Sequence record: OQ938542.1
DNA length: 64,000 bases
DNA from: Escherichia phage vB_EcoP_PE007
Reading direction: 5' to 3' (one strand)
Shown: piece after piece, positions 757 through 54,819 of the stretch
How the letters are laid out: each line of letters begins with the position of its first letter
Numbering within the stretch: position 1 is the stretch's first letter
Program-made: the position numbers and the translations under genes
Notes under the pieces: generated by a model
Database searches by the model: none
What the model was told of the DNA's origin: nothing
What the model saw: the letters and a program-made list of their open reading frames with translations, nothing else

Positions 757-773
757 AGGAAGCTCCGCTTCTA
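757..773 (+). promoter_or_regulatory. candidate virion-RNAP early promoter hairpin (stem gaagc/gcttc, loop tcc)
   Basis: 5-6 bp stem with 3-nt loop, preceded by aaaacca, ~30 nt upstream of next ORF; architecture known for N4 vRNAP promoters. Confidence 0.5.
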
Positions 774-1016: not shown

Positions 1017-1033
1017 AAGACGCTCCGCGTCTT
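1017..1033 (+). promoter_or_regulatory. candidate virion-RNAP early promoter hairpin (stem aagacgc/gcgtctt, loop tcc)
   Basis: 7-bp stem, 3-nt loop, same aaaacca upstream motif as hairpin at 757. Confidence 0.5.
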
Positions 1034-5666: not shown

Positions 5667-5681
5667 AGCTGCTCCGCAGCT
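5667..5681 (+). promoter_or_regulatory. candidate virion-RNAP early promoter hairpin (stem agctgc/gcagct, loop tcc)
   Basis: 6-bp stem, 3-nt tcc loop, 13 nt upstream of next ORF. Confidence 0.45.
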
Positions 5682-37300: not shown

Positions 37301-40300
37301 TTAGTTAGTAAGATTGAGCCACGGGTTCAGGGTATGAGCACGTAAGCCTTGACCGAAACCGAAGGAGTAACCAAGATTGCCCTGTGCAGCAATACTAAAG
37401 ATGTTGTCCTGAATAGGCAGACCAACGTTACCAAACATGGTAGGGGTTGGAGCCAACATAGCTATAGCAGCATGCACCGGGTTATTACGAATCATGGACA
37501 CTGCAACTTTTGCAGAACGAATCTTAAAGTTATAGAACCACATTAAACCAACACTTTCCATATACCCACGGAAGCGACCCGGTAGACGGTCATAGTTAAT
37601 AAACTCTTCCGTTACACGTCCTAGTGCTTCTTCACGGGTCTTACCTTTACGCTGAGTCAGTTCATCATAAATGATTGCTTTAGCGATAAAGTCAGAGTAC
37701 TCAACCGTCTTCTGGATACCCTGGAACAGAGCAGTATCCTTAGTGATAAGTGCATAACGACCTGCGTTACGTACAGACTTAGGCAGCTTATCAGCCAGCT
37801 TATCCATGTATTCGTGAAGTTTGCCTTCAGTAATAAGGATATCATCACGACCAATACCAGCATCTGCAATTGAGGAGAACTCACCAGCTTCCAGCAGAGG
37901 CCAGATACTCAAACGTTTATGGCTATCAGAGATGGACTGAATCTCAGCCTTAAGTTTACGAATCTGGTTCGGGTTAGTAGCTGCACGTAATTCTGCTTCT
38001 GCATCTACCTGACGCAGACGAGATTTCAGGTACTGGTTAATCTCAGCAGTCTTCTGTGGAATGCTCTTAGCAATGTTCTTAACCGGTACACCACGAGCAA
38101 TCATCTGATAAAGGTTAGCCAGGAAGTTAACAGCAGGTACGACTACTGACTTAACCACAATCAGAGTCTTAGCTTCTTTAACTAAGTTCTGAACCAGGTT
38201 CTCACCACCCATTACATACTTATAGGCACGGTTGCCAAAGACACCCAGCATAGCTTTCTTGAAGGTATCCAGTGTTTCTGGTGACCAACGGGAATTACCA
38301 GACCAGGCATCACCTACAGAAGCTGCACGATAACCCAGAGCATCGTTGAGCATGTCACGACGTACCCATAATTCACCCGGACCAAACAAACTTTCTGCTT
38401 TCTGACGGGTTTCACTGTTCATCAGCTTAAGTGCATCGGCAGTTACTGGGTCCAGTTTAGAACCAAGAAGGTTAACGTACTGGGACTTATTAGAAGCAGA
38501 CATCTTAATGTCGTTCTCATACATGCTATGCAGGTTCTCAATCAGCATATCATTGAAACGCTGAGCCTTAGCTTCTTCCACCTGACGACCACGCCATACA
38601 CCGATTGCACGAGCAAGATGGTTCTCACCTTCAATGTGCTTCAGCATATTAGGGTCAATGGATTGCTCATAAGCAACCACATTACCATTGGCATCATATA
38701 CAGGCAGCAGTGGTTCATTACCACGTTCACCACGAGCCAGTGCTTTAGTGATACGGTCTACGGAAGGCTTGTCAGTGATACGACCAGCTACCATGGTTCC
38801 CATAGTAAAGCCCGTACCGAGATCTACACCACCAGCAGTATTACGAACGTTCTGTAAGATACCTTGCGAGAAAGGAGCCTGTGCCTGTACTGGTGCAAAG
38901 TAGTAGCTACGTGCTGGTCCACGATTAGCAGAGCTACCCTGATAAGTACCAAGACGTACATAGGATTTCTCAATCAAATCAGCAAACTGACTATCTTCAG
39001 CAACAATCAGGTTAACACCCTGTTTGTTCTCAGTTGGGATGTATCCTTTGTACTGATTCAGGGTTGCACGAGTATCAGACTTAGCTTTAGCCATTTCATC
39101 TTTACGCTGACCAACCAGGTAAGAAGTAGCAAAGTCCATGCCTTCAATTTCTGTCTGAGCCAGTGAAGATAACATCTCACGGTCAGTCTTATTCATTGCT
39201 TCCAGTGCATACAAAGTAATCAGTTTATCCAACTGAGCTACATCTACAACAGAACGTGTAGTCTTACGTTCACCCAGTAAACGAGAAATTGCAGTAGCAT
39301 TACGTAGCAGGTTGTTACCAACCGTACCATTAATCATGTATTGAGCCAGTTGCTTAGATTTACGATTAATCAGAGGCCAGTTACGTCCTGCTTGTTTCTG
39401 TAAATCTGCTTCCAGTTTATTAACCTCACGGTCAACAATCTTCTGGTCAGTCAGCAGGTCACGGATTTCAGCCAGAGACATAGTGTCGCGAAGAACAGCT
39501 AAGTCAGTTTTACCCATACCAGTATGCATTGCTTTCCACTCATCGTTAGTCAGCTTACGGCTGAACTTAGATGCGATAGTAGTAGGCAAATGCTCACGGA
39601 ACTGCTGACGGTCAGCCTGTACCTGTGCACGTACTGCTTTAATCAAATCATATACAGAAGCATTGCTCTTAGTACGACCAGTTAAGTCATTAACCAGGTC
39701 ATGGAAAGGTTGCCATACTTTACCCTGGTTCATTGCAGCCATAACACCTTCAGCTACGATTGCACCATTCTTCTCTGTAGCAATAGCAGCTATCAATTGT
39801 GCAGCATGAGCAGCACCTTTAACCAGTGGGTTCTTGGTATTAGCTGCAACTTCACGAGCACCTTCCAAAGCACGGGTAGACAGTACATCAATAGAGTCCA
39901 CCAGATACTGGTTAGCACGGTCAATAGCATTACCGGTAGGAGTAGCAACGGAATCATAGAAGGACTCTGCATTAAGACTGGTCTGCATAATTGTCTGAGC
40001 CAGTGCATCCATACCTTCCTGTACGTTAGTGGCTTTAGTATCACCTGCTACACGAGCATTCAGGCTAGCCATTGCAGCAGTACCGATGTTAGTCAGCATT
40101 GCATCAACGGTATTGCCTGATTTCTTATCTGCTTTCATAACAGGAATATCAGCCAGTACCTTACGTACCTCTTCGCTTACCATTGCCAGACCAACAAAGG
40201 TAGGCAGTAAGGAAGAACGACCTTGTGCATCAAATTCAATGTTGTTAGCACCCATGATGGTATCGAACTTCTGCTGTGCATAGTAACGGTCAGCAGGGTT

Positions 40301-43300
40301 AGTACTATCCGGGTCAGCCATGAATGATTCGACGGTCAGATTCTTAGTAACATGCGTGTAGTATTCCTGTGCACGAGCCATAGCAGCAGGGTTAATAGCA
40401 GCCTCGGTAGCCAGTGCAGCAACAATGTTAGTAAAGAGACGCTGTTCCTGCATATTCATGGTGAAGCCATGTGCCTGAACATCACGAGTTACTTTAGTTG
40501 CATTTACTACTGCATCAGAGAACTTACCTTTACGAATTACTTGCTGTACTGGTTCTGAACCAATGTAGTTAGTAATCAGCTTATCGAAGGTTTTCCCTAG
40601 CTCTTCCAGACGAGTATTGTCACCGTATGCTTTGTTATGGAACAAGGTAGTATCTTTAGCTACAGCAGTAGTAGGGGCCTGCCCACGCATTACTACAGCA
40701 GAGTTAAACAGTAAGCCAGAGAACATATCATCTGCATTAGCAGGAGCTTTCTTACGTCCGAATACCAGACGTTTGATTGCTTCATATACAGCCTGAACCA
40801 TAGTTTTAAGTGCAGTGGTTTTCTTCTGCTTACTTATAAGTTCACGGTTGGTTAAACCCCAAGCCATGTACTCATTCAGTGCAGCAGCTTTAGCCATCGC
40901 TGGTTCAATAAAGCCATTAGACAAGTGACCATTAATGGTATTCAGTGCATTAGCATATGCTTCACGTACTGCCGGAGATTCATCCTTAACATCCAGAGCA
41001 CGGAACTGATTCATCAGGTCTTCAATATTCTGTACTGCTTCATTAGGAGTACCTTCATAGTGAGCCAGTACAGATTCAAAAGTAGAAGCATGTACTAATT
41101 CATGAACCAGAGTCTCTAAGGAAGGAGTAACTAAGTAGATGGTTTTATCTTCAAAGTTAGTCCAGCCATATGCATTACCAGCCTCAGCAGCTTCAATATC
41201 TTCTGGTGCTGGGCGAGTAATATTCTTCTCAATAGCGTAGGCATCCAGTTGAGAAGGCGTACCGTAAACAACCTTATAGTCTTTAGCAGCAAGAGATTTC
41301 TGTATTTCTTTCAGTACTGCTTGTTGTTCAGGGGACATCTCTTTAGCCAGTTTAGTAATGGCAGCATTAGACAGCAGACGTACACCAGACTTCAGTACAC
41401 GACCGACCTGTTCCATTGCTGGCACTTCTTTCACTGGTTCTGCTTTAGCAGCACGTACTGCATCACGACGCTTGTTTAATTCAGCATCAAACAGTTCGTT
41501 CAGCTTAGCTACTTGCTGGTCTACAGTCAGACCTTCCAGAGAGATTTTACCGTTGTTCACATAAGGAGCACCAACAGCAGCCATCTGGTCAACAGTGACT
41601 TGTACCTGGTCCATTACCTTGTGGCGAATATCTACACCCAGAGCAATATTACGCAGATTACGTTCAATCTGTTCAGCACCAACACGTAACAGGTCATCAG
41701 TAGCACCCTCACGTTGGTCGTATTCCAGTGCAGATTTAGCGATAGCTTGTTTGGTTTCATCAGACAGTTTGCTGAAGTCTACGTTCTTCATGAACTTAGC
41801 AAAGGAGTCATAAACATTCTTGATAGGGTTACCCTGCCAGGAAGTATATACAGCCTCATTAGCTTTACGGCTTGCATCAGTAATGTCATTAATACCAATG
41901 TTCATACCATCAAAGATTTTCAGGGTATTCTTCGGAGCACCTTTCATAGTAGAAAGGGTCTGCATCATCATGCCATCACCTGTACCGATGGTCATAAATG
42001 GAATACCTGCTACACCTGCCTGTGAAGGAGCATAGATGATCATTGGCACACGCATACGGTCATCTAAGTTGGTAGCCAATACTTGGTTAGCAACATCAGT
42101 ATTCTCACTACCAGCAATGTAGAAAGTCTGTGAACCAGTCTCAATCATTGGAGCCAGTGGAGACAATGAAGCCTGGATTTCATTCAGTTCTTTCTGTGTT
42201 AAGAAATCACCTTTCTTCCATGTTGGGTCTTTTTCTTTTTCTGCCAGCTTAGCCTGTACAGCTTGTTGGAACATATCCTGCAATACCAGAGATTGAATCT
42301 GAGTAGCCTTCTGTAAGTTCTCAGTAGAATACATCAGACCCTCACCAACAGTATTTCGGATACCAGTACGCATTGGTTCAACGAACAGATGAAGCATGTT
42401 CTCTTGTAAGTTCTTCAGAGCATTACCGGATACAGTAAACTTCTGAGGGTCTAACTTACCAGTCAGAGCACCATCTACCTGCTGAATAGACAACTCACCT
42501 TTACGCATAACCGGAACATTACCAGTTAGTGCTTCCATAGAAGTAAGGAAAGTATCCAGCATAGCCTGAGCATCAGCCTCAGACGCAGCCTCCTTACCAA
42601 ACATAGCCATAGCTGGGGAAATGCTAGGGTCAGCAGCACGGGCTTGTAGAACGTCACTGAAGCGTTCGTAGATGGTATCAGTAATTGCACTAACCATCTT
42701 GCCAGCAATACCACGAGCACCAGAACCATAGATGGTAATGGTCAGTGGGTTTTTAGCGATACCACGTTTCAGGTCCAGAGTACCATCTTCATTAAGATTG
42801 AAGTCTTTAATGAACAGGTCCATTAACTTCTGAAGATGCTTCATCTGGTTCGTAACAGGAACGTTGTTACGGTAAGTATTGCGTAATTCATTCAGTGCCT
42901 GTTGCAGACTATTAGTAGATGCTTCATACAGGTCAACACTGTCATCATGCGAATGATGCTCGTTCATAGTCTTGCCAGCTTTACCGAAGAACAAGCCACC
43001 CTTAGCAGTATTCTTAATCCAGTCTGAAGTGAACTTACCACCAGTCATTAATACCATTGCGTTGATTGGTCCGTTGGTTACACCATCGGCTTCAACGTAC
43101 AGTGGGGTATTAAAGTTAGCACGGTCATCACTGTTAAGGTAACGGGCATATTCCATAAGAGCCATGAGAGCTACGAATGATTTATCATTCCCCAAGGAAG
43201 TCTTCAGAATATCCACTGCATTAGCAGGTAAGTGACCAGACTTATCAAACTCAACCATCATATCAACAGCAGGTTTCAGTTTACCTTCCAGAGCTTTAGT

Positions 43301-46300
43301 CAGCTCATCTGACATAACTTCACGGGACATTTTATGAACTTTAATGCCTAATGCCTGAGCCAGTCCAAGCTGGAAGTCAGAGAACGTTTGACTGTTTTCA
43401 TTACTTAAGTCGATGGTAGAGAAGGTTGGAAGGATTGCTTCACGAACCAGCTTACTGGATTGTGGGTTGTTCTTACCAAGCATCTGCATACGACCTACAC
43501 GGGTCATGTTGTAGCCGTAGTGAATAGGTGTATCCAGTCCATTCTCCTGTTCCTTAATTTGATTGATTACACCAAACAAAGAATCATATGCCATGGACAC
43601 GGACAGGTTCTTACCTTCCAGTGATTTAGCAGTATTCACATTAAGCAACTCTGGGGTAAGAGCACCAGCACCCATTAATTCCAGAATGTTGTCACGACCC
43701 AATGCTTCATAGAAGTTAACCATAGGCATATGTACACGAAACTCAGTAGCTTGTTCTGCTTTGAGAGCAGCTTTCTGTTCCGGGGTATTATTAACAGCAG
43801 GGTTACGTAACTGAGTTTGAGCCACGGAAGGAATGTCATCACCCAGATACAATTTCTCTACTGGTTCTAAAAGGACAGTTTCCTCAATAGCAGTAGGGAA
43901 TTTATTAATGGCATCGTTATCATCCAGCTTCTCAATGGTATACAGACCAACAGTCTTATTAGATTCTGGGTCAATCTCAGACACATCTAACATGGACTCT
44001 TTAACTTCACCCATCTCAATAAGGGAAGACAGAATCTCTGTAGCCATTGCCATTGGGATACCCTTGGTATACCCCAAAGGTGCATTAGGATTACGATTCA
44101 AACCCCAATAGGATTCAATCTTTTGAGCTAGTGAGTTAGTAGCTTCAACCAGGGTCTGAGCATTCTCGAAGTCAGCCAGAATACCTTCTGGTAGCAGAGA
44201 TGCTTCCACACCAGTAATAGCAGCTACGTCTTTCATGTCTTTAACAGCAGCATTCTGTGTAGCAGTCAATCGCCATTGCAGACCAGCAAGTACAGCAGTT
44301 TCTAATAGCTGGTCATTGAACTTAAAGGTGTCACCATCTTTCTCTACGATGTTAAGTAACTTACCACCTACCCAACGGTTAGCCTCAGTACCTTCCGCAA
44401 AACGTTTACCAACGTTCTTGTTAGCAAGGAACTTAGCCAGACGGTCAGACAGAGTAGTCTTCAGAGTTTCACCAAACTCAAATAAGTCCTGGTAACGCTT
44501 AATCACATCACTTGTGAGAGCGTTATTTTCTTTTTGAGTAAATGCTTCAAAGCGAGCAGCAGAAGACAGTGCTTTCTTAACATCAGTCAAAGGAGACTCA
44601 GAGCCAATGGTACGAGACTTAGGTTCTTCTGGAAGACTAAATGCTTTAAGGAACTGGTTCGGTGTCTTGTCATTGTTGTAGACAGGGAACACTGTTTCCA
44701 TTTGAGATAAAGGTTTACCACCAACGGTATAGTCTGCTTTCAACTGAGCCAGTGATACTTCTTCCTTCTCTACATTATTGGTATTACGCCCAGACGTATC
44801 TACACCAATCTGAATCAGTGCATTGTTTGCTTCTACGAATGATTGAACAGTATTGAATTGTTCAGGAGTCAGCTTCTGATTATCAAACAGTTGTAATGAT
44901 ACAAATGGTTGCTCACTTCCTTTGTAGAAAGTGGAGCGTACAGCACCAGTATCCAGAGACATATCACGGTAACCATCATGACCAAATACATCAGACAGAC
45001 TGATATGGTCACCATTGGAACCAACAACAGTACCATCATCAAAGAGCCAAGGACTCTCCTTACGGTCACCATACTTATTAAGAGTATCCTGTGAAATAGT
45101 ATTCTCTTTCACATAAGAATCTCTTTCAGATTCAGTAGGCTGTTCAACGGTATCCTGTTTTTCAGATTGGTTCTCAGGTTCTTTTACAGTCTGTGGTTTA
45201 GACTCTTTAATAGTAGGTTCTGTTTTAACAGCTTCACTAACAGAGGGTTTAGTCTGTACAGTAGGGGTAACTGGTTCCTGTTTTGTAACAGGAGTTTCAT
45301 CAACCTGATTCACTGGTTCATTGGTCTGTTGGGATTGAGCAGCATCAAGATTGCCCTGACGGAACTCTTTAACTACCTGGGCGGCAGGCTTGTCCAAACG
45401 TGAATCCAATGGGGTAACTTTCACATGAGAAACATTAAGCTCCGGGTAAGCCGTAGCAAGTGCGTTAGCAATATCAGCTACGGTCTTGGCTTCCAGTCCT
45501 ACTTGCTGGGCAAACTTAACAGACTTGGTATCATACGGATTGACACCGAGGCCAGTACGACTACGTACCCATTCACGCGAGGGAGTAAGAGCCTGATAAT
45601 GGACAGACTTATTCTTATCCGCATTCCCAGAAATCAAATGCTCATTCAACGCTCCGACCTTATTCTGCATGTGCTGGGCGAACTTCATAAAATCGCTCAG
45701 ATAAGCGGAGGCCAAATCGAAGTTACCAGAGTTATACGCAGAACGAATGCGTTTCGCATGTTGCAACGCAGAGTACTGTCCTTCATTAGAACGAGACTCA
45801 TCGGTTTTAATCTGTTTACTAACAATATCTTGAGGACGTAAGCCTAGTTCTTCTGCTTTAGCGTCGAACTCTCGTGCACCCTGTAATAAGGCAGCAGCAG
45901 ATTGCAGGGCAGCACGTTGACGATTCCCCAGTGTAATCTTACCTTCACTTGCATGTTTCAGAACCATGTTCACTGAATCTGCATCCAGCACTTCTGGAGA
46001 TACATCAGCAGCCATAGCAATGTTGTTTGCTTGGGCTTGGTTAGCTTCTTCAGTAGCTTTCAGTTTACCTGCTTCAGCCTGTTCCTGAATCATGGAATGG
46101 ATGGCACGGAATGCACGAAGTACCTTCGGTGTATTCTGAACGTTAGCCATCAGGCCGGAGAATTGGTCTACGATTGCAGCAGCAGGGGAACCTTGTTCCA
46201 GATTAGCCAAAGCACCCGGGTCACGGTTAATGAAGCTATCCATAGACATGATATTGTCATACATCTGGATTGCAGCTTCCATTTGAACGTTAGGGTCTTC

Positions 46301-48055
46301 GGCAGTATTAACCAAGTCAGCCATCTTCTGAATAGCTTCTACACGGTTAGTGGAACCAGAAACAGCTTCACGGATTGCTGGGTTAGTTTGTTCCAATTCT
46401 ACCGGGTCAAACTTCATTGCCTGAGTTAAGTCAGCAGCATACTGGGTAGCAGCAGCTTTCTCTTCTGGAGAAATATCCATTGCATCCACTGCTTCCTGAA
46501 CAGTTGCTTGAGCTTGTTCTGCCTGAGCAGTAGCTTCTTGTGCAGCAGCGTTAACCGTAGCATCAGATACGGGGGATGCTTGTTCATTACGCTTAGCAAC
46601 TTCTTCCCCACGTTGAACCAGGATGTTAGTAATAGGTGAAGCTACTTTTGCTAGTGCCTTACCAGCCAAAGAAGCACCAGCCAGGGTAGTACGTACAGCA
46701 GGACCAACGGCAGCACCAGCAGCCTTAACAGTTGCACCAGGAGCTTGAGCAACTCCAGCAGAACCGAAGCCATACAATGCACCCAGACCAGTTTGTTCAC
46801 CCACACCTTTAAGCAAATCACGCTCAGCATCTACATTGCCATGAATTGCCTTGTTTTGTGCAAACTGACTTGTACCAGACTGGATACCTTCTTCTACAGT
46901 CTCACGCAGCATGTTAGAACCAGCACCAGCCAGTGAACCTACCTTAAGTGGGTTAAGTTCAAACTTGGATACCAGTGGAGCAGTAAGAGCAGCAACTGGA
47001 GCAGTTAAGCCAGCAGCAGTGATACCTGTTTCAGATGCAGTCTGGCGACGTGCTTCTTCAGGAGACAGACCGTCTTTAATATGCTGTTGGTATACAGGAG
47101 ATTTAGCAGCCAGTTCACTGAATGGCATTTCCATAATTTCATTAGCAGTCTGTTGGTATGCACCACCAGCTTCCATACCACCAATTGCTATAGCAGGTGC
47201 AGCAACACGACCAGCAGTCTGTGCAATACGTGCAGGACGATAACCTAATTCAGCAGCTAGGGTAATACCCTTAACAGCTTTATCACCACCTACCATTACT
47301 TTACCAAGTGCAGATACACCACGGATAAGTGGACCACCTGTAAAGAGGGAACCAACACCTTCACTCAGTCCGTCAGAAGCAGCCATACCATTATCAAGTG
47401 TGTTAGCAACAGAATCAAAAGCGTCACGACCAATACGAGACAAGGAGGCAACCAAATCGCTCCCCCCATTTTTGATATCTTGTTCATAGAGCTTCTGGTT
47501 CTTCCGTGCAGAAATCTGGTTCTGATTCTGAACAACTTTACGTGTAGCATTCAGTGCATCAGACTGTAGATTGTGTACACCCTCATTCAACCAATCCATC
47601 CCGGAAGCAATGGTTGCCCCGGCATTATTATTGACCAAACCTGCGCCAAGAGCAGCAATGCCCCCAAGGGTATTAGCAACACCAAGACCAACACCAGAAA
47701 GAGTATCGCCAAATGCTTCTGCGTTAGTACGTTGTTTAGATAAGTCCTGACGTACAACATCAGCAGCATTAGCTCGGCTATTAAGAATCTGTAAACCTTG
47801 CTCATTACCGTACTTATTAATGATTTCTAATGGGGAGGCTTGAGTGAAATCTGCCTGAAGTGAACCTGGTTCGAATGCACCGATTCCAAGATTACCTACT
47901 CGTCCAGTCTGGAGATTGTAAGCATTCTCTGGGGTTAATTGGAAAGGGCTTTGCCCTTGTGCAGCTTGCTTCTGAGAGGTTGCAGTAGAGACATCGACTT
48001 GCTTAGCATTAGTGATGCTGTCTGCGAAACCTGCCAGACGGTCAAATGTTGACAT
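37301..48055 (-). CDS. virion-encapsidated giant RNA polymerase (N4 gp50-like vRNAP)
   Basis: single uninterrupted 3584-codon ORF; ATG at 48055 with AGGAAA RBS (track ORF starts at upstream TTG 48073). Confidence 0.8.
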   Translation of the reverse strand: MSTFDRLAGFADSITNAKQVDVSTATSQKQAAQGQSPFQLTPENAYNLQTGRVGNLGIGAFEPGSLQADFTQASPLEIINKYGNEQGLQILNSRANAADVVRQDLSKQRTNAEAFGDTLSGVGLGVANTLGGIAALGAGLVNNNAGATIASGMDWLNEGVHNLQSDALNATRKVVQNQNQISARKNQKLYEQDIKNGGSDLVASLSRIGRDAFDSVANTLDNGMAASDGLSEGVGSLFTGGPLIRGVSALGKVMVGGDKAVKGITLAAELGYRPARIAQTAGRVAAPAIAIGGMEAGGAYQQTANEIMEMPFSELAAKSPVYQQHIKDGLSPEEARRQTASETGITAAGLTAPVAALTAPLVSKFELNPLKVGSLAGAGSNMLRETVEEGIQSGTSQFAQNKAIHGNVDAERDLLKGVGEQTGLGALYGFGSAGVAQAPGATVKAAGAAVGPAVRTTLAGASLAGKALAKVASPITNILVQRGEEVAKRNEQASPVSDATVNAAAQEATAQAEQAQATVQEAVDAMDISPEEKAAATQYAADLTQAMKFDPVELEQTNPAIREAVSGSTNRVEAIQKMADLVNTAEDPNVQMEAAIQMYDNIMSMDSFINRDPGALANLEQGSPAAAIVDQFSGLMANVQNTPKVLRAFRAIHSMIQEQAEAGKLKATEEANQAQANNIAMAADVSPEVLDADSVNMVLKHASEGKITLGNRQRAALQSAAALLQGAREFDAKAEELGLRPQDIVSKQIKTDESRSNEGQYSALQHAKRIRSAYNSGNFDLASAYLSDFMKFAQHMQNKVGALNEHLISGNADKNKSVHYQALTPSREWVRSRTGLGVNPYDTKSVKFAQQVGLEAKTVADIANALATAYPELNVSHVKVTPLDSRLDKPAAQVVKEFRQGNLDAAQSQQTNEPVNQVDETPVTKQEPVTPTVQTKPSVSEAVKTEPTIKESKPQTVKEPENQSEKQDTVEQPTESERDSYVKENTISQDTLNKYGDRKESPWLFDDGTVVGSNGDHISLSDVFGHDGYRDMSLDTGAVRSTFYKGSEQPFVSLQLFDNQKLTPEQFNTVQSFVEANNALIQIGVDTSGRNTNNVEKEEVSLAQLKADYTVGGKPLSQMETVFPVYNNDKTPNQFLKAFSLPEEPKSRTIGSESPLTDVKKALSSAARFEAFTQKENNALTSDVIKRYQDLFEFGETLKTTLSDRLAKFLANKNVGKRFAEGTEANRWVGGKLLNIVEKDGDTFKFNDQLLETAVLAGLQWRLTATQNAAVKDMKDVAAITGVEASLLPEGILADFENAQTLVEATNSLAQKIESYWGLNRNPNAPLGYTKGIPMAMATEILSSLIEMGEVKESMLDVSEIDPESNKTVGLYTIEKLDDNDAINKFPTAIEETVLLEPVEKLYLGDDIPSVAQTQLRNPAVNNTPEQKAALKAEQATEFRVHMPMVNFYEALGRDNILELMGAGALTPELLNVNTAKSLEGKNLSVSMAYDSLFGVINQIKEQENGLDTPIHYGYNMTRVGRMQMLGKNNPQSSKLVREAILPTFSTIDLSNENSQTFSDFQLGLAQALGIKVHKMSREVMSDELTKALEGKLKPAVDMMVEFDKSGHLPANAVDILKTSLGNDKSFVALMALMEYARYLNSDDRANFNTPLYVEADGVTNGPINAMVLMTGGKFTSDWIKNTAKGGLFFGKAGKTMNEHHSHDDSVDLYEASTNSLQQALNELRNTYRNNVPVTNQMKHLQKLMDLFIKDFNLNEDGTLDLKRGIAKNPLTITIYGSGARGIAGKMVSAITDTIYERFSDVLQARAADPSISPAMAMFGKEAASEADAQAMLDTFLTSMEALTGNVPVMRKGELSIQQVDGALTGKLDPQKFTVSGNALKNLQENMLHLFVEPMRTGIRNTVGEGLMYSTENLQKATQIQSLVLQDMFQQAVQAKLAEKEKDPTWKKGDFLTQKELNEIQASLSPLAPMIETGSQTFYIAGSENTDVANQVLATNLDDRMRVPMIIYAPSQAGVAGIPFMTIGTGDGMMMQTLSTMKGAPKNTLKIFDGMNIGINDITDASRKANEAVYTSWQGNPIKNVYDSFAKFMKNVDFSKLSDETKQAIAKSALEYDQREGATDDLLRVGAEQIERNLRNIALGVDIRHKVMDQVQVTVDQMAAVGAPYVNNGKISLEGLTVDQQVAKLNELFDAELNKRRDAVRAAKAEPVKEVPAMEQVGRVLKSGVRLLSNAAITKLAKEMSPEQQAVLKEIQKSLAAKDYKVVYGTPSQLDAYAIEKNITRPAPEDIEAAEAGNAYGWTNFEDKTIYLVTPSLETLVHELVHASTFESVLAHYEGTPNEAVQNIEDLMNQFRALDVKDESPAVREAYANALNTINGHLSNGFIEPAMAKAAALNEYMAWGLTNRELISKQKKTTALKTMVQAVYEAIKRLVFGRKKAPANADDMFSGLLFNSAVVMRGQAPTTAVAKDTTLFHNKAYGDNTRLEELGKTFDKLITNYIGSEPVQQVIRKGKFSDAVVNATKVTRDVQAHGFTMNMQEQRLFTNIVAALATEAAINPAAMARAQEYYTHVTKNLTVESFMADPDSTNPADRYYAQQKFDTIMGANNIEFDAQGRSSLLPTFVGLAMVSEEVRKVLADIPVMKADKKSGNTVDAMLTNIGTAAMASLNARVAGDTKATNVQEGMDALAQTIMQTSLNAESFYDSVATPTGNAIDRANQYLVDSIDVLSTRALEGAREVAANTKNPLVKGAAHAAQLIAAIATEKNGAIVAEGVMAAMNQGKVWQPFHDLVNDLTGRTKSNASVYDLIKAVRAQVQADRQQFREHLPTTIASKFSRKLTNDEWKAMHTGMGKTDLAVLRDTMSLAEIRDLLTDQKIVDREVNKLEADLQKQAGRNWPLINRKSKQLAQYMINGTVGNNLLRNATAISRLLGERKTTRSVVDVAQLDKLITLYALEAMNKTDREMLSSLAQTEIEGMDFATSYLVGQRKDEMAKAKSDTRATLNQYKGYIPTENKQGVNLIVAEDSQFADLIEKSYVRLGTYQGSSANRGPARSYYFAPVQAQAPFSQGILQNVRNTAGGVDLGTGFTMGTMVAGRITDKPSVDRITKALARGERGNEPLLPVYDANGNVVAYEQSIDPNMLKHIEGENHLARAIGVWRGRQVEEAKAQRFNDMLIENLHSMYENDIKMSASNKSQYVNLLGSKLDPVTADALKLMNSETRQKAESLFGPGELWVRRDMLNDALGYRAASVGDAWSGNSRWSPETLDTFKKAMLGVFGNRAYKYVMGGENLVQNLVKEAKTLIVVKSVVVPAVNFLANLYQMIARGVPVKNIAKSIPQKTAEINQYLKSRLRQVDAEAELRAATNPNQIRKLKAEIQSISDSHKRLSIWPLLEAGEFSSIADAGIGRDDILITEGKLHEYMDKLADKLPKSVRNAGRYALITKDTALFQGIQKTVEYSDFIAKAIIYDELTQRKGKTREEALGRVTEEFINYDRLPGRFRGYMESVGLMWFYNFKIRSAKVAVSMIRNNPVHAAIAMLAPTPTMFGNVGLPIQDNIFSIAAQGNLGYSFGFGQGLRAHTLNPWLNLTN

Positions 48056-48118
48056 AGCATGTTTCCTGTTCAAACTTATATCGTATATAGGTAACTTACT
48101 CTACAGTAAGCCAGTTAA

Positions 48119-48143
48119 AGAAAAAAGCCCCGTAGGGCTTTTA
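48119..48143 (-). terminator. intrinsic terminator upstream of vRNAP gene
   Basis: aaagccc-cgta-gggcttt stem-loop with T-run on - strand. Confidence 0.6.
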
Positions 48144-48149
48144 TTAGTA

Positions 48150-50114
48150 TTACCGATTTTGTCTGGGTTGCATATACTCAGGCAGTCCTTGTGCCTGACG
48201 TAAGTACCGTGCAGCACGTTCTTCATCTTCCTTGGCTCGTGCTCTATCCACACTAGCCTGTGACTGGAAACCTCTTGGAGCCAGGTTAGCTGGGTCAGCC
48301 TGTACTTGTGCCTGTGCAGCTTGGAGCATTGCAGCAGCTTTAGTAACAGCCTCCTGACGTGCAGGTAAAAGAGCAGTAAGACCGCTTTGTCCGGTGTTAA
48401 TCTTATTCTGGGTATTTGCCAGTGCAGCTACAGCAGCATCATATGCAGTCTGTGCCGCCTGAATATTCTGCATAGCTTGAGCACGACCAAGGTTACGAAC
48501 ACTACCTTCCAGTGGTTCACCCCGTTTCACACCCTCGATTAACTGTTCTACCTGACGGTCATTAAGACGCATACCATTACCTGCTTCATTGGTAATGAAT
48601 GGGTTAACTGCATCAATAGCACGACTAATATAACCCTCTGGTACACCAGTCTGTGCACGTTGCATAACAGCAGCAGCCATAGCAGGTGACATATTCCCAC
48701 GTTGAGAAATATCGTTCAGTCGATTCAGTACCCAGTTACGGTCAGCACCTTTAAAATCACCCTCCAGCAAACGATTAGCAATCTCACCTACTGGGGTATT
48801 ATCAGTGACAGTACCAAGGAAGTCTGTGTTAAGACTACCAGTGTTATCCTGCATAGAACGAGTACCAATCATACCCTGAGCCAGAGTAGATACTGCCTGA
48901 TTACCTTGATTATTCTGAACCATAGCAAGTGGGTCAGCCCCTACTTCAGCTTGAGCAATAACAGGTTTAATCTGTTCCCAAGTCATATCCTTATAAGCAC
49001 CTGGGGTAGAGTTAGGCAGAGCAGCCCAAGTATCTTTAAGGTTACCGTTCTTACGAGACTCGAAGATAGCCTTACCAATCTTATCCTGGTTCTCAGGAGA
49101 AAGAGGCTGGCTTTGCCAATCTGAACCAAGAACTTTGGGAGCGAAGTCTTTCAGAGTAGCTTGGTTAATCTGGAATGCACCAACAGGTGAAGCACCTTGA
49201 TTCGACTTCATACCATCCTGGTGTTTAATTACATCACCAATACTCATTTGAGTAATAGGGGTAGATGTACCGGCAAACTGGTAAGTAACATCGTAAGGGG
49301 AACCCTGACGAGTACCAGCAGTGCCAGGAGCAGACGCAGCACCTACGCCATTGCCGTATACACCCGGGTAAGTACTAGCCAGTAAACTCTGTAAACGTGC
49401 CTGTGCAACTGGGGACAAGTTCTTACTGTATGCTTCTGCCAACAGACGGGCATCATTAGGGTTCTCAGCACCACGGGTAATCTGTGACATTACACCCATA
49501 GCTGCCTGACTGTCAGCATCATTACGTTGAGCAACACCTAAATCAAAACGATTCTGTGCCTGATTAATAGCCTGACCACCCTGACCTTGTAGACGACCCA
49601 TCATCTCCAGTTGTTGGTCAGCAGGGAGTGCAGACAGTGCATCACGGGTCTGACTTAATGCAGCATTAATACGGTTCTGGTCACCGGACTGATAAGCCTC
49701 AGACAGTAAACGAATAGCCGGGGAAGCATTATCTAATGCAGTGTTAGTATCCTGTAAACGACCAAAGCGATAAGCAATGTAGTCATTGGTTCCCTGCTGT
49801 CCTTGTTGTGTCAGTAATGTACCTGCTCGTTCATCCAGGTTTTGGAGGGTACGTTGATTTACCAGTGAAGGATCAACCCCCTGAAACAGTGCACCAGATG
49901 CCAAAGCATTACGGTACTCATTCGGGTCTTGGTACTGCATAGCATTCATCATGACGGCATTGCCAGCCTCCTGCTTGGCAGCGTTCTGGAAATTACCCAG
50001 TGCATCACTTAAGCCGGAGGTGGCGTTACCAATCATGCTACCAAATGTGCGAATGCTGTCACCAACTCCAGAGAAGTTAGGTGCATCAACATTTCTCCAC
50101 GTTATCTGAGCCAT
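48150..50114 (-). CDS. virion protein (N4 gp51-like position)
   Basis: 654 aa, Gln/Ala/Asn-rich; AGGAAA RBS. Confidence 0.5.
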   Translation of the reverse strand: MAQITWRNVDAPNFSGVGDSIRTFGSMIGNATSGLSDALGNFQNAAKQEAGNAVMMNAMQYQDPNEYRNALASGALFQGVDPSLVNQRTLQNLDERAGTLLTQQGQQGTNDYIAYRFGRLQDTNTALDNASPAIRLLSEAYQSGDQNRINAALSQTRDALSALPADQQLEMMGRLQGQGGQAINQAQNRFDLGVAQRNDADSQAAMGVMSQITRGAENPNDARLLAEAYSKNLSPVAQARLQSLLASTYPGVYGNGVGAASAPGTAGTRQGSPYDVTYQFAGTSTPITQMSIGDVIKHQDGMKSNQGASPVGAFQINQATLKDFAPKVLGSDWQSQPLSPENQDKIGKAIFESRKNGNLKDTWAALPNSTPGAYKDMTWEQIKPVIAQAEVGADPLAMVQNNQGNQAVSTLAQGMIGTRSMQDNTGSLNTDFLGTVTDNTPVGEIANRLLEGDFKGADRNWVLNRLNDISQRGNMSPAMAAAVMQRAQTGVPEGYISRAIDAVNPFITNEAGNGMRLNDRQVEQLIEGVKRGEPLEGSVRNLGRAQAMQNIQAAQTAYDAAVAALANTQNKINTGQSGLTALLPARQEAVTKAAAMLQAAQAQVQADPANLAPRGFQSQASVDRARAKEDEERAARYLRQAQGLPEYMQPRQNR

Positions 50115-50126: not shown

Positions 50127-50570
50127 TTAACGGGTTAGTTTATTGGCTGCAATATAAGCATCAGCCGAAGACTGGTCACGATTTTCTGCTGTAGCACGGC
50201 TACGAGCACGGTCTTCCAGTGCAGTGTTATAAGACTTAATCTGGTTATTCAGGTTAGTGTTAGTAACACTCTTAGTAAAGTTCAGCTGGTCTTTGGCTAA
50301 CTTGTTAGCCTGGAAACCACTATAGATACCAGCTAAGGAACCAAGTGCACCGAGTCCTAGTTGGAAGGTGGGTACATTCATACCCAACTGATTAGCTGAA
50401 CCAGACAAGAAGGAAGTAGGGGAGGCTACTCCTGTACCTGCATTCATACCAATAGCTGCACCCGGATTGTAGTTCATAGCTGGGGTATTAAAATTCTGAT
50501 TGTTATTAGACATCCAAGACATAGCAGCTGGCTGTGGGGTTTGGTTGCCTGTTAAGAATGACAAATCCAT
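50127..50570 (-). CDS. virion protein (N4 gp52-like position)
   Basis: ATG at 50570 with AGGAG RBS (track ORF starts at TTG 50591); 147 aa. Confidence 0.45.
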   Translation of the reverse strand: MDLSFLTGNQTPQPAAMSWMSNNNQNFNTPAMNYNPGAAIGMNAGTGVASPTSFLSGSANQLGMNVPTFQLGLGALGSLAGIYSGFQANKLAKDQLNFTKSVTNTNLNNQIKSYNTALEDRARSRATAENRDQSSADAYIAANKLTR

Positions 50571-50583
50571 AGGGATTCTCCTG

Positions 50584-53238
50584 TTAAACAAGGTCAGTAT
50601 TAAGAGTCATATCAGAGTAGCTTCCAATCATGTTTAAAGACATGTCAGCTATATCCGAACCAGTCATGAGAGTACGTGAGAGGAAAGAATCCATCGACTC
50701 CATTGACACAAATTGCATAGGGTCAATTACACCCTGCCCAGCAGTACCAAACATCTCTTCATACTGCTTATTGATTGCCATCATATCAGTATTGTACTGC
50801 TGCATTACTTTCTCTGCTTTCTGAATAGTAGCAGCCGTAGATGCATTAATATACTGGCTAATACCATTACCTACTGAACTGGTAAGCTGCATGATGTTCT
50901 GAGCATTCATCATTTCACTGGCTAAGGTAGATAAGGATGAACCAGTAGATAGAGCAGTACCAACATTCATAGCTACCATTGAAGCAACAGCAGCAATGAT
51001 AAAACCTAGCTTATCACCAAAGAGTGAAGTGGATACTTTAGTGATAATAGATACCAGAATCATTGCAGCAATGGCGTTTGCTACAGCACCTACTATTACA
51101 GCAGCTAATCCAACAAAACCGAGTGACGCCCCAACTGCTCCATATGCCCCAAGTATACCTGCACCACCAGTACCCATAGTGAATACGGATACAACGACAG
51201 CAACCACAACAACCACAATCTTAAAGGCAGATGTTTGATACCACTTCTGCTTAACCTTCTTATATGAGTTCATCACCAAGTAAGAACAGGCAGTAGATAA
51301 CTGAGTACTACGAACCAGTGACATTGAACGGTAGATGTTAGTATGTAGTGGAATAATGAACCCACTCTCCTCTGCATCACCCATTGCTTCGGCAACATCA
51401 ATATGCACTGACTTATTCTTATATACCCTGTTATTGTGATTTAGACCCAGTACTCTAAGTTTACGATAAGTGTTATTACCATCCTGCCAAAGCAGTTCAT
51501 ACTCCTGCATAGAATAGAATGTAGTGGTAACCTCTAACTTCTTAGCTGAACCGGAGTTACTAGCAGTTCGTATGTTCTTGCGAGTAAGAGTTATATCCCC
51601 TGCATACCTGGCTCGAAGTTGTCCTTGCTTAGCACCAGACCATGCTTGCCCTGAGTGGGTAGTTTCAGATACGTAATTCCAACCAATGGTCATGTCATAC
51701 TTGTAATGCTTATTACTATGTACCCTAAATTCTCTCTTAGGTATGACTGGGTATTCTGGCAGTGGTGGAGGAGTTCCAATAGTGTGCCCTTCAGTCCTAT
51801 TCCACCATTCTACATATGCATCAACTGCATCATTAGCTGCCTGATAACCTGCAATCACTGCCTCCAAGGTTGGATAGGTTGGGTCAGGTGGGAATGCTTC
51901 AGTAGCCATCTGAAAGAAACGGTAGATGTATTCCTTAGCAGTATCTTCAGGAGTATTAAGAGATACGCCAAATGTGCCATAAATGTACTGAATATCACCT
52001 ATATCATCATTCTTCTTAAGCTCTGTTACTACCTTATCAATTTTTCCACCGGTAGCTTTATAAAGAGCTTTCTTACAGTATGGATAGATTGGGTCATTCT
52101 CTACCCATTGTTTATCGTTCCTGATTGGAATAAATGGATAGAATCGATTATCGGTAGCCTCAGTATCGAACAGTGAGTCTAGTGCAACGTTACCAGAGTT
52201 CTGCTTATAGATAAGCATCTTAGGTGTACCAACAGCAGTCATCTCTGTATCTGTACGAGTAGTCTGGGAGGAATACTTACGAACCAGTGTCTCTGTGGTT
52301 GTAGTGATTGTATCGGTACGAGTAACACCACCACCTATATCAACTACATTGGTAGTTACAGAAGTACTGGATTGAATCTCACCAAACTTTTTATGAGTCA
52401 TTACCCTGTCAGATACAACTACAGTTACGTCATCAGGTTTTTCAGTGAATCCTCTACGGTAAACCTTAATGTAAGAGTTCCAGTTATCTACACTTGGTTC
52501 GGTGACAGTACTGTCTTCATCTGGTCTACCATCAGAATAAACAGAATGAGTCTGTATAGTCTTAGTGAGATTAGTTGTATTAGCTGTTGTATCACTTGAA
52601 ACAGTAGTCCATAACAAAGTAGAAGGTAAGTCATCCTCATCATCATAGACAGTAGTCGGTCCCTCTACCGGTGGATTGATAGACGGGGACTTATAGAATG
52701 AGTAATCAGCATAGAGATACAAAGCACCTGGTTCAAAGTTAGTAGGTGTGAATTTAATAGTAGAACCACCATCCAGGGAGATCATAGTAATTTCATTAGT
52801 ATCTTCATTGATGTCTATGTCGAATCGTTCCATGATTCGACTAGGAGCATTTTCATAAAGATATTGGTCACACCATTGCTCAAAGTCAGCAAAGCCAATT
52901 TCTGCTGCCTGAACATAGACAGACTCTCCAGCAGGTGGTGTAATTTGACCCTCTATAACAGTAGGGTCAATCTTAGCCAATACACCCAACGAAGAACCAG
53001 CCATACCAACTTCTGAATCATAGTGGTTCTTACTCCAGCTGGAGAACAATCGCATACGAATACCAGGTCCATTCAGATAACTATCAGAGATAGTGTCTGC
53101 CATAGTGAATCCTGTATTGGAAACAATGTTACCGATGACTACAGTCTTCATATAGTTAGGACGTTTGTGTATATCCCCTGCCATGTTATAGACAGAGGAT
53201 GCTACGTATACTTTAGTCTTCCCACTGAATAAGCCCAT
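50584..53238 (-). CDS. large virion protein with Gly/Ala-rich hydrophobic segment (candidate ejection/internal protein, N4 gp53-like position)
   Basis: 884 aa; internal ~60-aa hydrophobic stretch IVVVVVAVVVSVF...AAVIVGAVANAIAAMILVSII. Confidence 0.5.
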   Translation of the reverse strand: MGLFSGKTKVYVASSVYNMAGDIHKRPNYMKTVVIGNIVSNTGFTMADTISDSYLNGPGIRMRLFSSWSKNHYDSEVGMAGSSLGVLAKIDPTVIEGQITPPAGESVYVQAAEIGFADFEQWCDQYLYENAPSRIMERFDIDINEDTNEITMISLDGGSTIKFTPTNFEPGALYLYADYSFYKSPSINPPVEGPTTVYDDEDDLPSTLLWTTVSSDTTANTTNLTKTIQTHSVYSDGRPDEDSTVTEPSVDNWNSYIKVYRRGFTEKPDDVTVVVSDRVMTHKKFGEIQSSTSVTTNVVDIGGGVTRTDTITTTTETLVRKYSSQTTRTDTEMTAVGTPKMLIYKQNSGNVALDSLFDTEATDNRFYPFIPIRNDKQWVENDPIYPYCKKALYKATGGKIDKVVTELKKNDDIGDIQYIYGTFGVSLNTPEDTAKEYIYRFFQMATEAFPPDPTYPTLEAVIAGYQAANDAVDAYVEWWNRTEGHTIGTPPPLPEYPVIPKREFRVHSNKHYKYDMTIGWNYVSETTHSGQAWSGAKQGQLRARYAGDITLTRKNIRTASNSGSAKKLEVTTTFYSMQEYELLWQDGNNTYRKLRVLGLNHNNRVYKNKSVHIDVAEAMGDAEESGFIIPLHTNIYRSMSLVRSTQLSTACSYLVMNSYKKVKQKWYQTSAFKIVVVVVAVVVSVFTMGTGGAGILGAYGAVGASLGFVGLAAVIVGAVANAIAAMILVSIITKVSTSLFGDKLGFIIAAVASMVAMNVGTALSTGSSLSTLASEMMNAQNIMQLTSSVGNGISQYINASTAATIQKAEKVMQQYNTDMMAINKQYEEMFGTAGQGVIDPMQFVSMESMDSFLSRTLMTGSDIADMSLNMIGSYSDMTLNTDLV

Positions 53239-54076: not shown

Positions 54077-54152
54077 AATCATTCCTCTTGGTTCAAAAAG
54101 AAACGGCCCACGGAGTTACCCCAGTGAGCCGTGTTGAACTGTAGCTTATACG

Positions 54153-54794: not shown

Positions 54795-54819
54795 ATTTCC
54801 TGTGGTTCATTTAGTTTTA

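Follow-up and report, generated by a model that had tools for sequence, protein, structure and literature searches.

The giant leftward gene described here is, with hardly any room for doubt, best explained as the late virion RNA polymerase (vRNAP) gene of a G7C-like coliphage, orthologous to N4 gp50, working by the mechanism derived from N4 and carrying an inserted domain as an extra bead in a linker. The coordinates are collected in Table 1, where the window is the whole stretch of 64,000 nucleotides of Escherichia phage vB_EcoP_PE007 (record OQ938542.1). Homology, motifs, promoters and gene order are seen directly in the sequence, while packaging, ejection, membrane anchoring and hairpin transcription are transferred by analogy from N4 experiments. 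The source phage belongs to Gamaleyavirus, Schitoviridae. The giant injected polymerase of N4-like phages, a hallmark of Schitoviridae, is already known biology; the insert is the single unusual feature of the gene, and it is unreported.

Identity of the gene

The ORF scan gives an entry at 37301..48073 on the - strand, 3590 aa long with a TTG start. Judging from the sequence, we take this TTG (3590 codons) as a mechanical ORF limit only and the in-frame ATG at 48055-48053 as the gene start, which leaves 3584 codons and an N terminus reading MSTFDRLAGF, as against MSVFDRLAGF in N4 gp50. The translated 3584-codon frame contains no internal stop codon, and since the chance of 3584 open codons at 43% GC is (61/64)^3584 ~ 1e-75, the frame is not there by chance. 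The single uninterrupted ORF of ~10.8 kb and 3584 codons announced by the first-pass annotation is thus borne out by the ORF scan, the translation and the ATG at 48055. That the giant ORF might be an assembly or annotation artefact, made of fused genes or of a pseudogene open by chance, deserves virtually no credit: the colinearity with N4 gp50 runs through 3500 residues with no frameshift, at least 80% of the gene is covered in 57 phage records, and dN/dS is 0.06-0.16 in all folded domains. This reading is refuted by the uninterrupted translation, the colinearity and the dN/dS. No frameshift or assembly artefact is apparent, because the colinearity with N4 gp50 holds throughout.

The DNA similarity search matched 88 phage records, among them the 57 just mentioned, and the best matches, 96% identical, are the annotated vRNAP genes of the Gamaleyavirus phages Bp4 and PD38. 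The annotation of pSb-1 splits the ortholog into three pieces, and the gene is mislabelled in several records. The similarity to N4 gp50 that the first-pass annotation wished to see checked is present, at 68% protein identity end to end (residues 1-990 and 1132-3583 aligned with N4 1-1004 and 1028-3499). Protein matches with E=0 include the full-length N4 vRNAP structures 9PNQ, 9PNR and 11GP as well as the mini-vRNAP crystals, residues 1132-2203 matching the chains 3Q0A, 3C2P and 2PO4. The family phrog_2206 (virion RNA polymerase) spans residues 25-3583, and four vRNAP domains are found by Pfam (vRNAP_dom_2, vRNAP_plug, N4_RNAP_helical and vRNAP_dom; E 6e-27 to 6e-101), vRNAP_plug lying at residues 1558-1639.

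The T7-like RNAP motifs expected in the central domain were also found, and they are the same as in N4: TRVGR (R1522), YVEADGVTNG (D1657), RGIAKNPLTITIYGSG (K1768, Y1776) and IFDGMNIG (D2049). For the numbering of the catalytic residues we rely on what we take to be that of Kazmierczak et al. 2002; the numbers fall exactly on the canonical motifs. Taken with the 68% identity, the Pfam and PHROG matches and the synteny, these motifs fully support the identification as an N4-like giant virion RNA polymerase. The list of promoter-contact residues was taken from PMC4496689 (-11 site K114/R119/W129, intercalating hairpin K267/K268, specificity loop D901/R904), and six of the seven are kept (K114, R119, W129, K268, D901, R904), K267 being replaced by N. 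This lack of conservation in the intercalating hairpin counts against our explanation without contradicting the identification.

Table 1. Positions in the window of the polymerase gene, its domains and the surrounding features
Feature	Position	Strand	Remarks
Early hairpin promoter GAAGC-TCC-GCTTC	759..771	+	predicted template for vRNAP
Early hairpin promoter GACGC-TCC-GCGTC	1019..1031	+	predicted template for vRNAP
Early hairpin promoter GCTGC-TCC-GCAGC	5668..5680	+	predicted template for vRNAP
Bidirectional terminator	37271..37296	.	between polymerase stop codon and convergent + strand genes; scan on both strands, 9-11 pairs
Virion RNA polymerase gene (N4 gp50 ortholog)	37301..48055	-	3584 codons and TAA stop at 37303-37301
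C-terminal domain	37304..41446	-	residues 2204-3584; 70% identity to N4 CTD
Polymerase domain (= N4 mini-vRNAP)	41447..44695	-	residues about 1121-2203; 71% identity to N4
Inserted folded domain	44699..45121	-	residues 979-1119; folded in AF2 model; absent from N4
Low-complexity linker	45122..45337	-	residues 907-978; length and sequence variable; dN/dS 0.45; = N4 linker 907-1006
N-terminal domain	45338..48055	-	residues 1-906; 61% identity to N4 1-906; dN/dS 0.16 vs PhAPEC5
Shine-Dalgarno AGGAAA	48062..48067	-	6 nt 5' of ATG; AGGAA invariant in 8 aligned phages
Conserved block GATATAAGTTTG	48071..48082	-	contains TATAAG (48080-48075); candidate regulatory element
Second conserved hairpin	48092..48113	-	core CTTACT-GTAG-AGTAAG, 48110-48095; no T-run after
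Intrinsic terminator of gp51-like gene	48117..48142	-	UNCG-type tetraloop and T-run; terminator scan; kept in 8/8 phages
gp51 homolog (ejection protein)	48150..50114	-	49% identity to N4 gp51
gp52 homolog (ejection protein; periplasmic tunnel in N4)	50127..50591	-	58% identity to N4 gp52

Domains, neighbourhood and proposed mechanism

The N-terminal domain of the N4 protein inserts in the membrane and is required for ejection (PMC13434306). The linker that follows shows indels among the relatives, and this region, 907-978, probably explains why the megablast alignments come in two pieces. In the C-terminal domain, HELVH at residues 2318-2322 (nt 41090-41104) provides an HExxH motif aligned with the HELVH of N4 at 2228; according to the N4 literature, the C1 subdomain of the CTD bears HExxH, and the CTD autoinhibits the polymerase and is required for encapsidation.

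The genes for the gp52 and gp51 homologs stand immediately upstream of the polymerase gene, in the order gp52-gp51-gp50 as in N4, all on the - strand. N4 gp51 forms an outer-membrane complex (PMC13434306). The true start of the gp52 homolog is probably the internal ATG at ORF residue 8, because residue 1 of N4 gp52 aligns there. A homolog of N4SSB is present as well (tblastn match 31900-32697, + strand, 57% identity over N4SSB residues 3-265). The sequence GCNCCGC is found at just three sites in the 64 kb, each of them on the + strand within the leftmost 6 kb; their stems are 5/5 complementary, each of a different sequence, around a TCC loop that reads GGA on the template strand. N4 early promoters have the same kind of architecture, a GC-rich heptamer centred at -11 with inverted repeats on either side (PMC4496689).

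By homology with N4, a few copies of the polymerase would be packed in the capsid and would follow the ejection proteins gp51 and gp52 out through the tail. Its N-terminal domain would enter the inner membrane, while the polymerase and C-terminal domains would refold in the cytoplasm, held by the flexible linker. The T7-like central domain would then transcribe the early genes from the hairpin promoters at 759, 1019 and 5668, extruded by gyrase-driven supercoiling, and the C-terminal domain with its HExxH would autoinhibit the polymerase and be required for packaging. The gene itself lies in the leftward late block; late genes of N4 are read by host sigma-70 RNA polymerase with the phage SSB as activator.

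The intergenic gap and the regulation of the gene

The hairpin in front of the gene (AAAAGCCC-TACG-GGGCTTTT at 48142-48123, 8 pairs, then the T-run TTCTTT) is a match of the terminator scan, and the records of PhAPEC5, PhAPEC7 and Jura mark it as a terminator; its loop is TACG here and TTCG in most of the other phages of the eight aligned. The first-pass annotation had the polymerase gene preceded by its own terminator. The hairpin stands, on the scan and on the annotations, while its ownership does not, as it belongs to the upstream gp51 homolog; the terminator proper to the polymerase gene is the bidirectional hairpin that directly follows its stop codon and that the PhAPEC5 record marks on both strands. 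Over 171 nt, the upstream intergenic region shows 100% identity to that of G7C. At the place of the second hairpin every lineage forms a stem of 6-9 bp from a different sequence, with compensatory changes at two pairs, even in a partly out-of-register alignment. The block GATATAAGTTTG, unique in the window, is identical in seven of the eight phages (5 genera, from N4 to Klebsiella phages) and the remaining one has TATATG, whereas identity in the flanking coding DNA falls to about 75% for the most distant of the five genera. Such near-invariance across genera shows that the block has some function, though not that it is a promoter.

The same annotation had suggested for this gap a late promoter belonging to the polymerase gene. 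The conserved hairpin and a literal TATAAG (48075-48080) are indeed present; the promoter itself is unproven on the sequence. In its favour, tentatively, one could place it between the gp51 terminator and the ATG, with TATAAG as the -10 element read by host sigma-70 RNA polymerase together with the phage SSB, a homolog of which the phage encodes. A strong terminator directly upstream and the contrast between GATATAAGTTTG and its flanks argue for this, as does the weak likeness of N4 late promoters to sigma-70 promoters and their dependence on N4SSB (PMC4496689; PMC9163698), the likeness being reported as remote (PMC9163698); in LUZ7, 33 late start sites are scattered among the late genes (PMC9163698). 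However, a G stands at -7 in 8/8 phages where sigma-70 requires T, and the -35 element is absent, TAGAGT at 17-nt spacing matching at 3/6 positions. A scan of the gap 48056-48149 with the sigma-70 consensus (requiring A2 and T6) returned no site, transcription beginning about 7 nt downstream would give a leader of just 12-14 nt, and the TATAAG motif does not recur before the other late genes of the window.

It is also conceivable, and we would put this not far short of an even chance, that the gene lacks a promoter to itself and depends on partial read-through of the gp51 terminator. Acting as an attenuator, the latter would keep low the level of the 10.8-kb message and of its product, which in N4 amounts to about 4 copies per virion, and the conserved hairpin and the 12-nt block would act on the RNA (stability, processing or translation). 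Read-through is a live alternative because other late gaps are alike and most LUZ7 terminators are leaky (PMC9163698): in three other late gaps of the window a terminator hairpin immediately precedes the next gene, in one case just some 30 nt ahead of the start codon, and these three share with gene 50 a common TGAAC..AGGA leader, while in LUZ7 more than 60% of the terminators pass substantial transcription and stepwise read-through builds the late operons (PMC9163698). The lack of a sigma-70-like site in the gap is consistent with it, as are the compensatory changes of the second hairpin, expected of an RNA or DNA structure. On the other hand, the terminator has the look of an efficient one, with an 8-bp stem, a UNCG-type loop and six T, and the long-read data on LUZ7 could assign its vRNAP gene to no operon. 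We consider leaky read-through and an own promoter equally plausible for the polymerase gene; the terminator ahead of it is strong but probably leaky.

The inserted domain

The linker that joins the N-terminal domain to the polymerase domain houses the insert (residues 979-1119), which 28 phage records contain and which is absent from N4, PW8, PhAPEC7, Jgk1, KKP3715 and IME11; PW8 is 97% identical and yet lacks it, the segment replaced relative to PW8 being about 44696-45148. Near-identical phages with and without the insert constitute natural knock-out pairs. The AF2 model (pLDDT 90, pTM 0.85) predicts a folded alpha/beta domain. With a dN/dS of 0.076, equal to that of the catalytic domain, the insert is under strong purifying selection. 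Searches of Pfam, PHROG and the PDB with it gave no match and no structural relative, and a Pfam search of 19 insert members matched no model, even at E up to 10. Four polar residues (D38, H39, R62 and Q88) are invariant across members that are 30% identical.

Elsewhere, the characterised hosts of the domain among the 19 clusters are all giant polyvalent proteins, injected or transferred by conjugation, where its partners are SLT, ResIII/SNF2-type helicase, methyltransferase, ddrB-ParB, InPase, LPD22, LPD38, LPD39 or a TrwC relaxase. One host among the 19 clusters is a distant vRNAP, and the domain also occurs as a stand-alone protein of 166 aa. Iyer, Burroughs, Anand, de Souza and Aravind (2017) counted N4-like vRNAPs among the polyvalent proteins, which are giant, multidomain and delivered with the invading DNA; in every case a zincin-like HExxH domain is fused to these vRNAPs, and some carry extra effector domains such as ART, BECR-fold RNase or lysozyme (PMC5512222).

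The insert may be an accessory cargo domain, an additional bead on the tether that links the N-terminal domain with the polymerase, brought to the cytoplasmic side where the DNA enters. We suggest, with some reserve, that it represents an undescribed family of early-delivered effectors on the polymerase tether, which would use the invariant D-H, R and Q to counter host defence or to modify a target, be it of the host or DNA, would move between injected phage proteins and conjugative relaxases, and would have been gained or lost repeatedly at the same permissive linker position in distant vRNAPs. The linker that hosts it varies in length anyway, fold searches give no enzyme relative, and the phages that lack it differ little in other respects and were recovered as viable isolates; these facts would also fit a passive spacer or a docking module (capsid packing or gp51/portal contact, for example) that does not act on the host. 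We regard such a module as rather unlikely, for the dN/dS is at the level of the catalytic domain, the four invariant residues look like a functional site, and the domain is also found in proteins that have no capsid context, for example the TrwC relaxase fusion, and as the 166-aa protein.

Comparison with known systems

Like N4 gp50 (2PO4, 3C2P, 3Q0A; 9PNQ, 9PNR, 11GP), the PE007 protein consists of an N-terminal domain, a linker, a T7-like polymerase, a linker and a CTD with HExxH; it shares all the catalytic motifs, the position after gp52-gp51 and the type of hairpin promoter, with three copies at the left genome end. It differs in being 84 residues longer, in the replacement of K267 by N and in having a folded domain of 141 residues where N4 has only the low-complexity linker between N-terminal domain and polymerase. 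The Gamaleyavirus vRNAP genes of G7C, Bp4, PD38, ECBP1 and PhAPEC5 are 91-96% identical in DNA across the gene and contain the insert, the differences being limited to point changes and indels in the low-complexity linker, whereas PW8, PhAPEC7, IME11 and KKP3715, Gamaleyavirus too, are without it. With the T7 family of single-subunit RNAPs the central domain shares T/DxxGR and motifs A, B and C; unlike them, vRNAP is three times larger, packaged in the virion and inactive on duplex DNA, and reads a DNA hairpin (N4 work, PMC4496689). Finally, the insert matches no LPD or polyvalent model in Pfam, which is without some of LPD1-40; its relatives sit among the typical partner domains of the polyvalent proteins (PMC5512222).

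Identity of gene 50

The open reading frame scan returned one open frame of 3590 aa when counted from a TTG, the earliest possible start (coordinates of all features are collected in the table). Translation from an in-frame ATG, preceded 6 bases upstream by AGGAAA, yields 3584 residues and zero stops, and its N terminus reads MSTFDRLAGF where N4 gp50 has MSVFDRLAGF. The ATG, the length of the translation and the N4-like N terminus mean that 3584 codons, as the first-pass annotation had counted, is the correct length of the gene, position 48073 being only a mechanical limit of the open frame. The check for frameshifts and stops gave no internal stop, and the protein is colinear with the N4 virion RNA polymerase (vRNAP).

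The first-pass annotation had also proposed a giant N4-like vRNAP with T7-like motifs, and here the protein searches agree with it from end to end. Matches at E=0 were obtained with the full-length N4 vRNAP chains 9PNQ, 9PNR and 11GP and with the mini-vRNAP crystal chains 2PO4, 3C2P and 3Q0A; those to the N4 structure are split into two colinear segments (residues 1-990 and 1132-3583). In PHROGs, phrog_2206 (virion RNA polymerase) spans residues 25-3583, and Pfam gives four vRNAP-specific domains, among which the plug insertion and the N4 helical domain. Identity to N4 gp50 is 68% overall, and 61% in the N-terminal domain (NTD), 71% in the polymerase domain and 70% in the C-terminal domain (CTD). 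When N4 positions are mapped onto the protein, the T/DxxGR, A, B and C motifs are the same as in N4 (TRVGR, YVEADGVTNG, RGIAKNPLTITIYGSG and IFDGMNIG). The catalytic residue numbers, reportedly those of Kazmierczak 2002, fall exactly on these four motifs. CTD subdomain C1 retains its HExxH, in the form HELVH at residues 2318-2322. Among the promoter-contact residues listed in a review of N4 (PMC4496689), K114, R119, W129, K268, D901 and R904 are kept while K267 is replaced by N. The upstream minus-strand genes are homologs of N4 gp51 (49% identity) and gp52 (58%), in the same order as in N4, where they encode ejection proteins (outer-membrane complex and periplasmic tunnel; PMC13434306).

A megablast of gene 50 against 50,697 phage records gave 88 matches, 57 of them spanning 80% or more of the gene length. 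Escherichia phages PD38 and Bp4 come first (96% identity), followed by ECBP1, PhAPEC5, St11Ph5 and G7C-type phages; the matching phages belong to Gamaleyavirus, Enquatrovirinae, Schitoviridae, and most of the matches are annotated as virion RNA polymerase. On sequence grounds, the identification of gene 50 as the hallmark vRNAP gene of a G7C-like phage is secure. The finding is correct but ordinary, this enzyme being already annotated in dozens of genomes and, in the genus, since 2011. It is nevertheless useful for correct annotation, because several orthologs are mislabelled in GenBank: as DNA polymerase (PD205, U1G, HK2, ST4), translation initiation factor 2 (phi G17), gram positive anchor domain protein (ECBP1) or GTP-binding domain (K57alpha1.2). 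The pSb-1 ortholog is split into three CDS.

Past the stop codon of gene 50 stands a bidirectional terminator-like hairpin, on which a Tad2-like gene, the counterpart of N4 gp49 (DUF2829), converges. A 97-aa ORF is wedged between the two; PhAPEC5 has no gene there. A Phage_gp49_66 family gene and a single tRNA-Ile are the final plus-strand features ahead of the strand switch, and the cumulative GC skew reaches its maximum at the same point, near 36-38 kb.

Coordinates of the features discussed
Feature	Position	Strand	Remarks
Early hairpin promoter, N4-type	759-771	+	5-bp stem, TCC loop
Early hairpin promoter, N4-type	1019-1031	+	5-bp stem, TCC loop
Early hairpin promoter, N4-type	5668-5680	+	5-bp stem, TCC loop
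N4SSB homolog	31900-32697	+	57% identity to N4SSB
tRNA-Ile	35561-35635	+	anticodon AAT
Phage_gp49_66 family protein	35939-36331	+	PF13876
Tad2-like (Thoeris anti-defence 2-like) protein	~36453-36965	+	PF11195, E 3e-24; phrog_872
97-aa ORF	~36974-37267	+	phrog_29107, E 3e-45
Terminator-like hairpin	37271-37296	both	bidirectional
Gene 50, open frame from TTG	37301-48073	-	3590 aa
Gene 50, from ATG	37301-48055	-	3584 codons
Linker insert of gene 50	44699-45121	-	residues ~979-1119
Start codon ATG	48055-48053	-
AGGAAA	48067-48062	-
12-mer GATATAAGTTTG	48071-48082	-	contains TATAAG
Literal TATAAG	48080-48075	-
Second hairpin	48092-48113	-	stem CTTACT/AGTAAG; T-run absent after it
gp51 terminator	48142-48123	-	AAAAGCCC-TACG-GGGCTTTT, then TTCTTT
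Late gap with terminator hairpin	54083-54152	-
Late gap with terminator hairpin	54795-54861	-
Late gap with terminator hairpin	61639-61884	-

Early hairpin promoters

The vRNAP promoters of N4 are DNA hairpins with a GC-rich centre between inverted repeats (PMC4496689). When both strands of the 64 kb are searched, GCNCCGC has three sites in total, all of them plus-strand sites within the leftmost 6 kb; the early promoters of N4 also number three and lie close to the left end. The stems are perfect, with a different sequence at each site, and the loop corresponds to GGA on the template strand. AAAACCARGA precedes the hairpins at 759 and 1019. With the vRNAP gene and three hairpin promoters found, enzyme and templates are both present. 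By analogy with N4, the enzyme would be packaged in the virion and then ejected, its NTD would be anchored in the membrane, and the polymerase, presumably autoinhibited by the CTD, would refold in the cytoplasm and transcribe from these hairpins.

The gp51-gp50 intergenic region

The hairpin and the TATAAG described upstream of gene 50 by the first-pass annotation both exist, the latter literally. The hairpin is however the terminator of gp51 and not the gene's "own terminator". We aligned this gap in eight phages from five genera (Gamaleyavirus, Moovirus, Kaypoctavirus, an unclassified Klebsiella phage, and Enquatrovirus with N4 and Jura), and the order of the elements is conserved: terminator, second hairpin, GATATAAGTTTG, AGGAA, ATG. 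The terminator keeps its UNCG-type loop and its T-run. The second hairpin begins about 7 nt past it and its stem varies by lineage (CTCACT/AGTGAG in Moo19, TTCACT/AGTGAA in St11Ph5, CACACT/AGTGTG in the Klebsiella phages, ACACTA/TAGTGT in N4) while the pairing is always kept, that is, it is maintained through compensatory changes from N4 to the Klebsiella phages. The 12-mer is identical in seven of the eight. This conservation means that there is something functional in the gap; for the second hairpin, a role in RNA stability or processing, or as a DNA structure overlapping the -35 position, is possible.

The question is then how gene 50 is transcribed. A late promoter of its own in the gap, as the first-pass annotation suggested, fails the sigma-70 consensus test: the consensus scan finds zero sites in the gap, the -35 position reads TAGAGT, and in every aligned phage TATAAG has a G at -7. 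The 12-mer is also unique within the window, and its near-matches number 36 vs 78 expected by chance, so we rejected it as a recurring late-promoter motif. On the other side, the TATAAG is present in a conserved block, and N4 late promoters are only remotely sigma-70-like and depend on N4SSB (PMC4496689, PMC9163698), a homolog of which is encoded here and reaches within one residue of the C terminus, the part required for activation in N4. The suggestion was a reasonable guess, although unproven. The other reading is that gene 50 is expressed by attenuated read-through of the gp51 terminator. Three other late gaps likewise carry a terminator hairpin immediately ahead of the following gene, in one case with about 30 nt from the hairpin to the next start codon, and their leaders share TGAAC..AGGA with gene 50, which suggests that dosage in the late operon is set by serial leaky terminators. 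Of the terminators in phage LUZ7, also N4-like, more than 60% leak, and late operons there arise by stepwise read-through; that study placed the 10.2-kb vRNAP gene of LUZ7 in no operon (PMC9163698). Weighing the N4SSB dependence, the remote likeness to sigma-70 and the SSB homolog against the leaky terminators, we regard read-through as a serious possibility that falls somewhat short of probable, and a promoter in the gap as only slightly less likely. The two are compatible, not exclusive.

The junction (48030-48200) is 100% identical to that of G7C over 171 nt, the whole polymerase gene is nearest to Bp4 and PD38 (96%), and G7C is the carrier least similar within the linker insert described below (89.9% aa); these affinities suggest a mosaic history within the genus. 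The second hairpin and the 12-mer are a modest lead, no description of them being found in the literature searched; with the deeply conserved terminator, they are precise targets for mapping the transcription of gene 50.

An additional domain in the vRNAP linker

The break in the match to N4 is accounted for by a 141-residue insert without N4 counterpart, in the linker between NTD and polymerase, which in N4 (907-1006) is of low complexity and invisible by cryo-EM (PMC13434306). Compared with PW8, otherwise 97% identical, DNA identity is perfect to about 45150, beyond which about 450 nt stand in place of about 54 nt. The insert is missing from PW8, PhAPEC7, Jgk1 and KKP3715; tblastn recovers it in full from 28 phage records, G7C, Bp4, ECBP1 and PhAPEC5 among them, while 27 others match at the flank only. 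In the MAFFT alignment, the two ends of the insert are placed opposite parts of the N4 linker, but the profile HMM of the family finds no remnant in N4, PW8, PhAPEC7 or KKP3715, and we dropped the idea of a remnant in N4. In base composition the insert is a little richer in AT than the gene (GC 39.7% vs 44.4%, GC3 29% vs 35%). Against PhAPEC5, its dN/dS is 0.076, next to 0.062 in the polymerase domain, 0.063 in the CTD and 0.45 in the adjacent low-complexity linker. Hence the insert is not junk: it is under strong purifying selection.

Pfam, PHROGs and PDB sequence searches gave no match to the insert (not all LPDs are in Pfam). A word-indexed protein search gave a single protein with the insert as query and a single protein with the family profile; relatives required exhaustive HMMER, which found only 19 clusters among 1.84 billion cluster representatives. 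Their hosts are mostly very large proteins with "polyvalent protein" domains, combining the insert with SLT, a ResIII/SNF2-type helicase, a methyltransferase and LPD39 (representative P0004), a methyltransferase, ddrB-ParB and LPD39 (P0005), LPD38 (P0006, P0017), LPD22 (P0008), SLT (P0010), InPase (P0016) or a TrwC relaxase and AAA_30 (P0019). P0013 is a distant vRNAP, 23-26% identical in the CTD and polymerase domain, with the insert at the same position, directly after a low-complexity stretch and ahead of the polymerase domain. One copy stands alone (166 aa, locus L012, 7294-7794 of metagenome contig ERZ23491061 scaffold_4375), adjoining a ParB_N gene on a phage- or plasmid-like contig; the neighbours there are the ParB_N/HTH_ParB gene, a DNA polymerase III beta clamp, a Prok_Ub/E2/JAB/ThiF cluster and a CCA-adding enzyme. 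Iyer et al. 2017 (PMC5512222), who defined 40 uncharacterised LPDs, had already placed the N4-like vRNAPs among the polyvalent proteins, which may bear extra effector domains. We dropped the idea that the insert is a PD-(D/E)xK nuclease or a BECR RNase, as it lacks a conserved (D/E)xK and gave neither a Pfam PBECR match nor a barnase or RelE fold match.

In the N4 model the NTD remains in the membrane and the linker tethers the polymerase in the cytoplasm (PMC13434306). By analogy, a folded insert at the polymerase-proximal end of the linker would reach the cytoplasmic face of the entry site within seconds of the onset of infection. Because the insert is dispensable (near-identical phages lack it), strongly constrained where present, and accompanied elsewhere by relaxases, helicase-methylase modules and ParB-like domains, we tentatively propose, as one possibility, an accessory function early in infection, directed at host defence or at the incoming DNA; a structural or docking role seems to us unlikely. 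This linker domain, of which we found no description in the literature searched, is a modest lead. The 2026 cryo-EM studies of N4 liken the polymerase to beads on a string, which have to pass through a channel about 30-35 Å wide and are joined by a featureless 100-residue linker, whereas in G7C-type enzymes a conserved domain is folded within this linker. Their insert thus offers a natural way to see how much the channel will tolerate, and is possibly a new injected effector.
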